Below are positions 40,912-44,662 of a stretch of DNA of 64,000 nucleotides, piece by piece (positions within the stretch are counted from its first letter, which is position 1; every line of letters starts with the position of its first letter). Both the position numbers and the translations under genes were made by a program. This stretch comes from Escherichia coli (GTDB lineage: Bacteria > Pseudomonadota > Gammaproteobacteria > Enterobacterales > Enterobacteriaceae): assembly GCF_051903065.1 (NCBI RefSeq), contig NZ_CP178438.1; one strand, 5' to 3'. Under the pieces are notes generated by a model. The model saw only the letters and a list, made by a program, of their open reading frames with translations, made no database searches and had not been told where the DNA came from.

Positions 40912-41787
40912 ATGGCAGATTTAGACGATATTAAAGATGGTAAAGATTTTCGTACCGATCAACCGCAAAAAAATATCCCTTTTACCCTGAAAGGTTGCGG
41001 TGCGCTGGATTGGGGAATGCAGTCACGCTTATCGCGGATATTTAATCCGAAAACGGGTAAAACCGTGATGCTGGCTTTTGACCATGGTTATTTTCAGGGA
41101 CCGACTACCGGACTTGAACGCATTGATATAAATATCGCCCCGCTGTTTGAACATGCCGATGTATTAATGTGTACGCGCGGCATTTTGCGCAGCGTAGTTC
41201 CCCCGGCGACCAATAAGCCGGTGGTACTGCGGGCGTCAGGTGCGAACTCTATCCTGGCGGAATTAAGCAATGAAGCCGTGGCGTTATCGATGGATGACGC
41301 CGTGCGCCTGAACAGTTGCGCGGTGGCGGCGCAGGTTTATATCGGCAGCGAATATGAACATCAGTCGATCAAAAATATTATTCAGCTGGTCGATGCCGGA
41401 ATGAAAGTGGGAATGCCGACCATGGCCGTGACTGGCGTGGGCAAAGATATGGTGCGCGATCAGCGTTATTTCTCGCTCGCGACTCGAATCGCCGCTGAAA
41501 TGGGGGCGCAAATTATCAAAACCTATTATGTCGAAAAAGGTTTTGAACGGATTGTTGCCGGATGTCCGGTACCCATTGTTATTGCTGGCGGTAAAAAATT
41601 ACCGGAGCGCGAGGCGCTGGAAATGTGCTGGCAGGCTATCGATCAGGGCGCTTCTGGTGTGGATATGGGGCGTAATATTTTCCAGTCTGACCATCCGGTG
41701 GCGATGATGAAAGCCGTACAGGCGGTGGTACACCATAACGAAACGGCTGATCGGGCATATGAACTCTATCTGAGTGAAAAACAGTAA
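40912..41787 (+). CDS. lsrF: LsrF (class I aldolase-like thiolase for phospho-AI-2 degradation)
   Basis: 291 aa. Confidence 0.95.
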
Positions 41788-41809
41788 CTGCGGATTAAGG
41801 AGAAGAAAC

Positions 41810-42100
41810 ATGCACGTCACACTGGTTGAAATTAACGTTCATGAAGACAAGGTTGACGAGTTTATCGAAGTTTTTCGCCAGAACCACCTGGGCTCGGTAC
41901 AGGAAGAAGGCAATTTGCGCTTCGATGTCTTACAGGACCCGGAAGTGAATTCGCGCTTTTATATCTACGAAGCCTATAAAGATGAAGACGCAGTGGCGTT
42001 CCATAAAACCACGCCCCACTACAAAACCTGTGTCGCGAAACTGGAATCTTTAATGACCGGGCCGCGTAAAAAACGTCTGTTCAATGGGTTGATGCCGTGA
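41810..42100 (+). CDS. lsrG: LsrG (phospho-AI-2 isomerase, ABM monooxygenase fold)
   Basis: ORF from 41774, but the protein matches LsrG from [14 protein letters not shown] (96 aa). Confidence 0.9.
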
Positions 42101-42585
42101 GGCGAATTTATCCGGTGCGCCGTAAAACCCCGTCCTTCAGGGCGGGGATATAAGGCGCGGTTTTCCACCTGACCAGGTGTTTGCTGTTGTTCAATGTATT
42201 GGCGGATGACGGATATTGGCGCACCTCCGCAGCTACTGGCAAAATAGCCAGGACTCCACAAAACGCCTTTGTAGTAATACCTGACTGCAATATCTGGTCG
42301 ATCTCGTCGCAGTAACCTACCTGATACGCTTTTGAGGCTGTTTACCAGACTGGATATCGCCAGTTTGGGAGGATAGTTAATTAACAAATGGACGTGATCT
42401 GGTTCGCCATCCATTTCAACCAGTTCAGCTTCAAAATCAGCACATACATTTGAAAAGTAAGTGCGTAGTTTTTCTGTCGCGTCATGGTCAAAAATCTGGC
42501 GTCGGTATCTGGTGACAAAGACCATGTGAACATGCTTCAGGAAAACACAATGCCTTCCACGCCGGATATCTGTTTCTTTTTTCAC
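42019..42585 (-). CDS. tnpA: IS200/IS605 TnpA (Y1 HUH tyrosine transposase); conserved core about 42180-42585
   Basis: HUH motif DHVHLL and catalytic-Tyr region [15 protein letters not shown]; the ORF lacks a stop at the expected point and continues antisense into lsrG. Confidence 0.7.
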
Positions 42586-43903
42586 AGACCAAAATATAAT
42601 TTGACCTGTGAAACGACTACAGGCATTTAAATTCCAGTTAAGACCCGGTGGTCAACAGGAGCGTGAAATGAGGCGCTTCGCAGGCGCATGTCGTTTCGTT
42701 TTCAATCGTGCTCTGGCACGTCAGAATGAGAATCATGAGGCCGGTAATAAATACATCCCTTACGGGAAAATGGCTTCCTGGCTGGTTGAGTGGAAAAATG
42801 CCACTGAAACGCAATGGCTTAAAGATGCCCCGTCACAGCCATTGCAACAGTCACTGAAAGACCTTGAGTGGGCTTACAAAAACTTCTTCCAGAAGCGGGC
42901 TGCTTTTCCCCGATTCAAAAAGCGGGGACAGAATGATGCATTCCGCTACCCGCAGGGCGTTAAGCTCGATCAGGAAAACAGCCGTATTTTTCTGCCGAAA
43001 CTGGGCTGGATGCGCTACCGGAATAGCCGTCAGGTCACGGGTGTTGTGAAAAATGTCACGGTCAGCCAGTCCTGCGGTAAGTGGCACATCAGTATTCAGA
43101 CAGAAAGTGAAGTATCAACTCCGGTTCACCCTTCAGCATCAATGATCGGGCTGGATGCTGGCGTGGCTAAACTCGCCACGCTGTCAGATGGCACAGTCTT
43201 TGACCCTGTAAACAGTTTTCAGAAAAACCAGAAGAAGCTGGCGAGACTTCAGCGACAGTTCAGCCGCAAGGTCAAATTCAGCAACAACTGGCAGAAGCAG
43301 AAACGCAAAATACAGCGACTGCATTCCCGTATCGCAAATATCCGCAGGGACTACCTTCACAAAGTCACAACGACCGTCAGCAAAAACCACGCAATGATAG
43401 TCATTGAGGATTTGAAGGTCAGCAACATGTCAAAGTCAGCAGCGGGTACGGTCAGCCAGCCGGGGCGCAATGTCCGGGCAAAATCAGGTTTAAACCGTTC
43501 GATACTGGATCAGGGCTGGTATGAAATGCGTCGCCAGCTTGAGTACAAGCAGCTCTGGTGTGGCGGTCAGGTGCTTGCTGTTCCGCCAGCGTACACAAGC
43601 CAGCGTTGCGCGTGCTGTGGTCATACAGCGAAAGAAAATCGCGTGTCACAAAGTAAATTCAGATGCCAGGTATGTGGATATACAGCGAACGCCGATGTAA
43701 ACGGCGCTCGTAACATTTTAGCGGCGGGGCACGCCGTTCTTGCCTGTGGAGGGATGGTGCAGTCAGGCCGCCCGTTGAAGCAGGAACCCACCGAAATGAT
43801 TCAGGCGACAGCCTGAACGTAGCAGGATCCTCGTCATTCAGGGCGTGGAGGATGTCAACAGTTTTATCTACAATTGGGGTAACGCGCTGACGGGAGTAAA
43901 AAA
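42101..43903. mobile_element. IS200/IS605-family insertion element (divergent tnpA and tnpB); ends approximate
   Basis: Y1/HUH transposase and TnpB encoded back to back, filling the interval between the lsrG stop and the tam start codon. Confidence 0.6.
42608..43816 (+). CDS. tnpB: TnpB (IS605 OrfB family, RuvC-like RNA-guided endonuclease)
   Basis: 402 aa; RuvC-I IGLDAGV, RuvC-II IVIEDL, Ruv[14 protein letters not shown], and zinc finger CACCGH...CQVCG. Confidence 0.8.
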
Positions 43904-44662
43904 ATGTCTGACTGGAACCCCTCTTTATATCTGCACTTTGCCGCTAAACGATCGCGTCCGGCGGTGGAGCTGCTTGCCAGAGTGCCGCTGGAGAATGTCG
44001 AATATGTTGCCGATCTTGGCTGTGGCCCAGGTAACAGCACCGCCCTTCTACAACAACGTTGGCCTGCTGCCAGGATAACGGGCATCGACTCATCTCCGGC
44101 GATGGTTGCCGAAGCACGCAGTGCTTTGCCGGACTGCCAGTTTGTGGAAGCAGATATCCGCAATTGGCAACCGGAACAGACACTCGATCTGATTTTTGCT
44201 AATGCCTCACTGCAATGGCTGCCCGACCACTACGAATTGTTTCCTCATCTGGTTTCGTTACTTAATCCGCAGGGCGTGCTGGCAGTACAGATGCCAGATA
44301 ACTGGCTGGAGCCGACCCATGTGCTCATGCGCGAAGTTGCCTGGGAACAAAACTACCCGGATCGCGGGCGTGAGCCGCTGGCAGGCGTTCATGCTTACTA
44401 CGATATTTTGAGCGAAGCCGGATGTAAGGTCGATATCTGGCGAACCACTTACTATCATCAGATGCCGTCGCACCAGGCGATTATCGATTGGGTGACCGCC
44501 ACTGGATTACGTCCGTGGTTACAGGATCTGACCGAGAGCGAACAGCAGCATTTTCTTACGCGCTACCATCAGATGTTGGAAGAGCAGTATCCACTGCAAG
44601 AGAACGGACAGATACTGCTGGCATTTCCGCGTCTGTTTATTGTTGCCCGGCGTACGGAGTAA
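43904..44662 (+). CDS. tam: Trans-aconitate 2-methyltransferase
   Basis: 252 aa with SAM-binding motif DLGCGPG. Confidence 0.9.

Follow-up and report, generated by a model that had tools for sequence, protein, structure and literature searches.

What lies between lsrG and tam in the window analyzed here (the whole stretch of 64,000 nucleotides of Escherichia coli DNA), and could it encode a working RNA-guided nuclease? The sequence-only reading had taken the interval for an IS200/IS605-family element with an apparently intact TnpB and had proposed it as a candidate OMEGA nuclease locus. The question has several parts: which element this is and where it ends, whether its two proteins are intact, whether a structured RNA overlaps the end of tnpB, and which sequence such an RNA would direct the nuclease to.

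Identity, ends, and distribution of the element

We compared positions 41800-44200 with 5426 complete E. coli genomes by megablast. Copies at other E. coli sites matched the window element with 97-98% identity over its full length, and the K-12 copy was ~97.6% identical to the window copy at the nucleotide level across the whole element. The central ~1.75 kb has matches scattered over many unrelated positions on the chromosome; their annotation reads IS200/IS605 or IS609 tnpA together with "RNA-guided endonuclease InsQ/TnpB." The name IS609 is used here on the basis of near-identity to copies annotated as such (two matches carry the name). The family assignment made from the sequence alone is thus narrowed to IS609, and we put at about 0.88 the probability that the locus is a copy of this catalogued element (IS200/IS605 family), which entered the lsrG-tam spacer directly 3′ of TTTAT in a minority lineage of E. 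coli.

The ends were defined by comparison with an empty site and among five insertion sites, as follows.

42112..43858, plus strand: IS609 element, 1747 bp, left end CCGGTGCG..., right end ...GGAGGATGTCAA (basis, empty-site comparison and five insertion sites)
42107..42111, plus strand: target or transposon-adjacent motif (TAM) TTTAT, directly 5′ of the left end (five sites)

The unoccupied site reads ...GAATTTAT|CAGTTTTATC..., and its comparison with the filled window site gives the junction TTTAT|CAG..., with no target duplication. TTTAT followed by CCGGTGCG forms the left junction at all five independent E. coli insertion sites, and ...GGAGGATGTCAA is common to the right junctions of the same five, among which the base after TCAA differs. 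The element therefore spans 42112-43858 and not all of 42101-43903, the interval that the sequence-only reading had regarded as entirely filled: the native lsrG-tam spacer is 56 bp long, and the element divides it into 11 and 45 bp that still flank it. Before the left end of relatives without tnpA, which come from phage and plasmid contigs, the motif reads GTTAT or CTTAT, so the core of the TAM is TTAT. The published IS609 cleavage sites, TTAT on the left and TCAA on the right (PMC6906374), agree with these ends. Insertion would have followed the single-strand "peel and paste" route, directly 3′ of TTTAT.

The insertion between lsrG and tam is a rare lineage-specific polymorphism. It was found in 30 of the 5426 complete E. 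coli genomes, and the junction is uninterrupted in 5188 of them. Far more genomes, 4875 (~90%), contain the IS609 right end, the median being 2 places in those that have any. In the record of a K-12 derivative, the sole IS609 copy is the one at ydcL-ydcO; as the best match in this record is that copy alone, K-12 is empty at lsrG-tam, as had been surmised when the insertion was called strain specific. In strain 23CRST027, which matches the window at 100% identity over the query, RefSeq gives the order lsrG, tnpA pseudogene, TnpB (WP_072686651.1, identical to the window protein), and tam.

Two known forms of the element bear directly on this copy. The K-12 copy, located between ydcL and ydcO, consists of a pseudogenized tnpA and insQ (formerly ydcM) and shares with the window copy its ends, the TTTAT target, a 402-amino-acid TnpB, and a tnpA frame that lacks the usual stop; unlike it, the window copy occupies the rare lsrG-tam site. 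The tnpA-less IS609 derivatives of P1-like phage-plasmids (~1.34 kb; pJIE250-3 [PMC6906374]) have the same left-end hairpin, TnpB, right end, and TTAT target, whereas the window element keeps a full-length tnpA frame.

TnpB, the transposase frame, and the subterminal hairpins

Four features inside or overlapping the element are needed for judging whether it could act.

42608..43816, plus strand: tnpB, 402 amino acids, GTG start; D183 (43154), E267 (43406), D363 (43694); zinc finger C334/C337/C353/C356
42019..42585, minus strand: tnpA reading frame (Y1 HUH transposase), 188 amino acids, GTG start; HUH motif at 42388-42396, Tyr130 at 42196-42198
42117..42158, plus strand: left-end subterminal imperfect palindrome, core stem 42128-42135/42140-42147 with one T.G position
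43828..43849, plus strand: right-end subterminal hairpin, with a T.T mismatch at 43831/43846 in the window copy

By every sequence criterion tested, TnpB is intact and a member of the RNA-guided TnpB family. It carries the Pfam domains HTH_OrfB_IS605, OrfB_IS605, and Cas12f1-like TNB in the standard order, and it scores 378 bits against the NCBIfam model guided_TnpB (NF040570; cutoff, 100). In a full-length alignment to ISDra2 TnpB of Deinococcus radiodurans (PDB 8EXA, 8BF8, and 8H1J; E value of 6e-56 with 8BF8/8EXA), D183, E267, and D363 fall on the catalytic residues D191, E278, and D361, and C334, C337, C353, and C356 fall on the zinc finger cysteines C331, C334, C351, and C354. The RuvC-like acidic motifs and CxxC...CxxC finger that had been read from this 402-residue plus-strand frame, divergent from tnpA at a distance of 22 bp, are thus all present, and the concern that a residue of the D/E/D triad might prove substituted on careful alignment can be set aside. 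The two systems differ in gene order, which is divergent in the window. The target motif of ISDra2 is TTGAT, whereas that of the window element is TTTAT (core, TTAT). IS609 TnpB has been purified and screened for trans-cleavage (PMC12781874). Upstream of the 83-85%-identical tnpB genes at three related loci (L034, L039, and L040), we looked for an IS607-type serine recombinase ORF and found none.

The minus-strand frame is a Y1 transposase, as the sequence-only reading had it. Its product matches Pfam Y1_Tnp over model positions 2-121 of 121 (E value, 6.5e-40) and the NCBIfam IS200/IS605 transposase equivalog NF033573 with 141 bits (cutoff, 55), with the HUH motif at H64-V65-H66 and the tyrosine Y130 within RQYIEQQ. 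Both ends of the frame are unusual. At the 5′ end, the start codon that is ATG in other copies is ATT in the window (42598-42600), and of the N terminus that those copies encode, MILWS(M/V)KKETD, the second Met codon is GTG in the window; this in-frame GTG (start at 42585), five codons downstream of the lost ATG, is the sole remaining start. Whether TnpA would be expressed from the window copy is therefore uncertain, its ATG start being lost. At the 3′ end, the usual stop is absent inside the element in all five copies translated, and the frame reads through the left-end hairpin into the flank, so that each insertion would give the transposase a different C-terminal tail. In the window, the frame runs past the end of the element for its final 30 codons and stop, which fall in the spacer and in lsrG, and overlaps the last 82 nucleotides of lsrG. 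The nearest non-E. coli homologues among the plasmid matches listed (Helicobacter pylori, 59% identity; tblastn) align only to about residue 137, which suggests that IS609 tnpA has lost its usual stop codon. In RefSeq, tnpA is flagged as a pseudogene ("missing C-terminus") in all copies that we examined, that at the window locus included. The K-12 and Br_112 copies have internal stops in tnpA; the window copy has none, but it lacks the ATG that is present in the others.

The left-end palindrome is kept in all copies compared, and its DNA fold has an energy of -14.1 kcal/mol (z, -2.46). The right-end hairpin of the window folds weakly (-3.0 kcal/mol; z, 0.2) compared with that of the K-12 copy (-9.9 kcal/mol; z, -2.2), because of the T.T mismatch and an altered loop-closing base. 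Relative to the K-12-type hairpin (CCACGTCC...), the window hairpin differs by two substitutions and a 1-nucleotide deletion. The deletion lies just upstream of the hairpin and was seen at the window site only, being absent from the 24 other aligned sequences. The pair at 43831/43846 covaries in relatives (A-T, C-G, and T.G). The hairpin would serve both as the TnpA recognition hairpin and as the last stem of the RNA described below. The lost tnpA start, with only the downstream GTG left, and the mismatched right-end hairpin together make autonomous movement of this copy doubtful.

A predicted guide RNA over the 3′ end of tnpB

The sequence-only reading had placed an RNA scaffold in the last ~150-250 nucleotides of the element. 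A conserved structured-RNA signature is indeed found there, with a core nearer 115 nucleotides, for which 150-250 is an upper bound.

43743..43858, plus strand: predicted guide RNA (omegaRNA or right-end RNA) scaffold core, ~115 nucleotides, from Rfam leads, covariation, and synonymous constraint
43743-47/43780-84, 43751-58/43767-73, 43791-92/43825-26, 43796-806/43811-20, and 43828-35/43842-49, plus strand: scaffold helices, from RNAalifold and pair counts, followed by the 3′ tail GGAGGAUGUCAA

The 5′ limit of the scaffold may lie further upstream, near 43690. Four independent lines (Rfam matches, covariation, third codon positions, and a sister element) place a conserved structured RNA over ~43743-43858.

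The RNA families HgcC, RAGATH-18, and sot0042 are known to occur at tnpB 3′ ends. An Rfam scan of 41500-44500 at relaxed thresholds returned just two matches, which fall exactly on the predicted scaffold in the plus strand: RAGATH-18 (RF03064) at 43743-43786, with 28.1 bits against a gathering threshold of 44.9, and HgcC (RF00062) at 43749-43871, with 23.6 bits against 50. Matches to these two families and to sot0042 (RF02656; ~18 bits against a gathering threshold of 88) were also obtained at the corresponding place in five of the seven relatives scanned. As all scores are below the gathering thresholds, membership in any of the three families was dropped, and the matches were kept as positional leads. 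The window RNA has in common with these families the CCUGUGGAG...GAAGCAGGAA stem and the GGAGGA-GUCA tail; it differs in not being a member as the families are curated. RNAs derived from RAGATH-18 are published TnpB guides (PMC11061315).

Covariation was assessed in an alignment of 25 distinct right ends (71-100% identity) from E. coli chromosomes, enterobacterial plasmids, and IMG/VR contigs. The RNAalifold consensus has five helices within 43743-43858. In the tested structure as a whole, both partners vary at 10 pairs, and 2 of 500 shuffles reached that number. In the same set, 34 cells change on both sides, compared with 10.9 expected, and 97% of cells are paired, compared with 32-46% when the partners are slid, all in a set of close relatives (93% mean column identity) that partly overlaps coding sequence and from which the structure itself was derived. 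We regard the covariation as supportive of a conserved structure and not as conclusive. The minimum free energy fold of 43620-43858 alone is weak (z, -2.0); its long-range pairs were not kept, and the alignment-based structure was used instead.

Third-codon-position variation, computed over six tnpB genes of equal length, is 0.4-0.9 in the codons of most of the gene (42608-43687), 0.35 in codons 361-380 (43688-43747), and 0.05 in codons 381-400, the last 20 full codons (43748-43807). Such suppression of synonymous change is the pattern expected of an RNA that overlaps the end of the gene. In a sister element whose target motif is TTAC, both the CCUGUGGAG...GUUGAAGCAGGAAC core and the GGAGGAUGUCAA tail are preserved, and the two intervening hairpins are replaced by different sequences that still form stems. 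The core of the sister element has also been given as CCUGUGGAGGGA...GUUGAAGCAGGAAC. A search of 42000-44000 found no plus-strand sigma-70-like promoter; shuffled sequences gave promoter and terminator counts at least as high, and the scan is therefore uninformative on transcription of the RNA.

Predicted guide, target, and competing readings

The source of the guide is predicted from the established mechanism of TnpB, for which the work of Karvelis in 2021 and structural studies of ISDra2 and Geobacillus TnpB are reportedly the basis.

43859..43878, plus strand: predicted guide CAGTTTTATCTACAATTGGG, the first 16-20 nucleotides of the flank upstream of tam

If the window element behaves like ISDra2 and Geobacillus TnpB, the 3′ region of tnpB and the right end would be transcribed together with the adjoining flank, giving a guide RNA that runs 16-20 nucleotides into the flank (43859-43878); as with ISDra2, the RNA is expected to span the tnpB 3′ end, the right end, and the flank. 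The empty site reads TTTAT followed by CAGTTTTATCTACAATTGGGGTAACGCG, which is the right flank of the element in the window, so that the predicted guide (CAGTTTTATCTACAAT...) has an exact match in the empty site, adjoining TTTAT. A guide taken from the junction of the element with the tam side had been inferred beforehand, and the flank that would serve as this guide does match the empty site next to the TAM. Where the element is present, TCAA and not TTTAT stands before the guide-matching sequence. Within the window there is no other near match to the predicted guide, and the combination of TTTAT with the guide sequence occurs only at the unoccupied lsrG-tam site. TnpB with its guide RNA would then recognize and cut lsrG-tam sites that lack the element (TTTAT and CAGTTTTATCTACAAT...), and repair of the cut empty allele from a filled copy would restore the element, which would thereby be retained. 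Both the production of a guide RNA and cleavage by the TnpB of the window copy are predictions by analogy with characterized TnpB systems. More broadly, IS609 is present in ~90% of complete E. coli genomes, its tnpA is often broken, and its transposition in K-12 has gone unseen; we tentatively suggest, at less than even odds, that it may persist mainly through TnpB and the guide RNA.

The window copy could instead be a stranded, decaying relic, with no transposase, a right end that is no longer recognized, and a TnpB and RNA that are intact merely because the insertion is recent, so that nothing is active. The transposase side of the element lends this some weight: the first Met codon of tnpA is ATT and the second is GTG, RefSeq calls the gene a pseudogene, the right end has its T.T mismatch and weaker fold than in K-12, and the 1-nucleotide deletion is confined, among the aligned sequences, to the window site. 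The single K-12 copy of IS609 also gave no new insertions in mutation accumulation lines (PMC5009759). Yet the Y1 domain is full length, with its HUH motif and tyrosine intact and an in-frame GTG start available, and a transposase might be supplied in trans, the genome record 100% identical to the window having three matching places. Nor is the altered right end peculiar to this site. The copy at yfeD has the same hairpin variant, and copies 1 base off the window over the last 120 nucleotides lie at further annotated sites, such as a sulfatase-like gene, so the variant has been mobile. No disabling change was seen in TnpB itself, and the core of the RNA at 43743-43826 departs from the consensus by at most 1 base. 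We consider a wholly inactive relic unlikely, if still deserving of weight.

The distance of the predicted guide from the tam ATG, 26-45 bp on the upstream side, would also suit a domesticated, TldR-like TnpB that represses tam by RNA-guided binding without cutting. This was rejected as very improbable: the three RuvC residues and the full C-terminal zinc finger domain are present, the same element occurs at many unrelated sites, and the guide match at the occupied site follows TCAA instead of TTTAT, which means that the protein would have no target at the locus of the element itself. A chance origin of the ORFs and motifs within an expanded intergenic region was likewise rejected and is given no credence, as Pfam and NCBIfam E values range from 1e-14 to 1e-113 and near-identical copies number in the thousands.

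The reading of the locus as an IS609 copy with an RNA-guided nuclease is thus favored, and the earlier proposal of a candidate OMEGA locus is supported. The candidate is not a new one: TnpB-type RNA-guided nucleases are as well established as IS609, which is catalogued, and RefSeq already labels the gene at this locus "RNA-guided endonuclease InsQ/TnpB family protein." If the proposed mechanism is true, the lsrG-tam copy is a natural test case in the native host, with an intact TnpB and an exact guide against the empty allele of 5188 genomes, and guide RNA-directed retention or homing would be directly measurable there. With the ends, the TTTAT motif, and the predicted guide now defined, the filled/empty polymorphism (30 versus 5188) is usable for studying TnpB-mediated retention in wild E. 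coli. The details of tnpA (the lost ATG and the absence of a stop in the element) and the right-end hairpin variant bear on the autonomy of the copy; otherwise, the value of these results is in correct annotation. The element, inserted 45 bp upstream of the tam ATG, also shifts the sequence further upstream by 1.75 kb and may in this way alter tam expression.

The tnpA reading frame at the insertion site

None of the five IS609 copies that were compared (the one in the window and L002, L004, L005 and L006 elsewhere) contains a stop codon for the tnpA frame between its two ends. The frame instead crosses the left-end hairpin and ends in the adjoining flank, and as the stop is thus supplied by the flank, the C-terminal tail of TnpA varies with the insertion site.

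Window 42019-42175, minus strand: exit of the tnpA frame at the left end; equivalent left ends lie in L002, L004, L005 and L006

In the window, the flank contributes 30 extra codons to tnpA, and these run antisense across the lsrG 3′ end. On the other side of the element, the native sequence that still precedes the tam start codon amounts to only 45 bp (43859-43903). If tam has a promoter farther upstream, the element has moved it 1.75 kb away, and transcripts of tnpB or of the right-end RNA that read through would enter tam.

Relatives without tnpA and a sister element

Many phage- and plasmid-borne relatives are missing tnpA. About 85 bp separate the left-end hairpin from the downstream tnpB in these relatives, and the element is ∼1.34 kb long.

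∼1417-2752: tnpA-less relatives (IMG/VR contigs L016, L020, L022, L025, L026, L028, L030 and L031)
∼2630-2790: right ends of the sister element (L025, L048, L049, L051 and L050)

One group among the tnpA-less relatives consists of 14 loci with a common flank (GCTGCCTCTTTAATG...), and its right end terminates in GTCAC rather than GTCAA. The right-end regions of this group are 91 to 97% identical to that of the window, which suggests an old insertion that became fixed in one phage lineage.

A sister element has the target motif TTAC, as seen in L025. Its TnpB is 95% identical to that of the window in L025 and 63 to 71% identical in L048 to L051. The sister element and that of the window have in common a core resembling the Rfam family RAGATH-18 and the GGAGGATGTCAA terminus, whereas their internal hairpins differ and the right-end palindrome of the sister element is longer and different. 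In L048, L049 and L051, the final ∼190 nt of tnpB are 92 to 96% identical to IS609, while the whole protein reaches just 67 to 71%; this disparity hints at recombination between elements.

Viral-contig settings of IS609-like tnpB

On the IMG/VR contig L040, an IS609-like tnpB (83% identical) is preceded, at a distance of ∼450 nt, by a stretch (851-1052) that matches two Rfam families above their gathering thresholds: C4 antisense RNA at 79 bits and isrK at 59 bits. This tnpB neighborhood is a phage immunity-region context. Sequence closely similar to that of L040 also lies directly upstream of tnpB in L034 and L039. Loci L037 and L046 belong to one 44-kb viral contig (IMGVR_UViG_2609459977_000002), which carries the 85%-identical tnpB twice, in opposite orientations.
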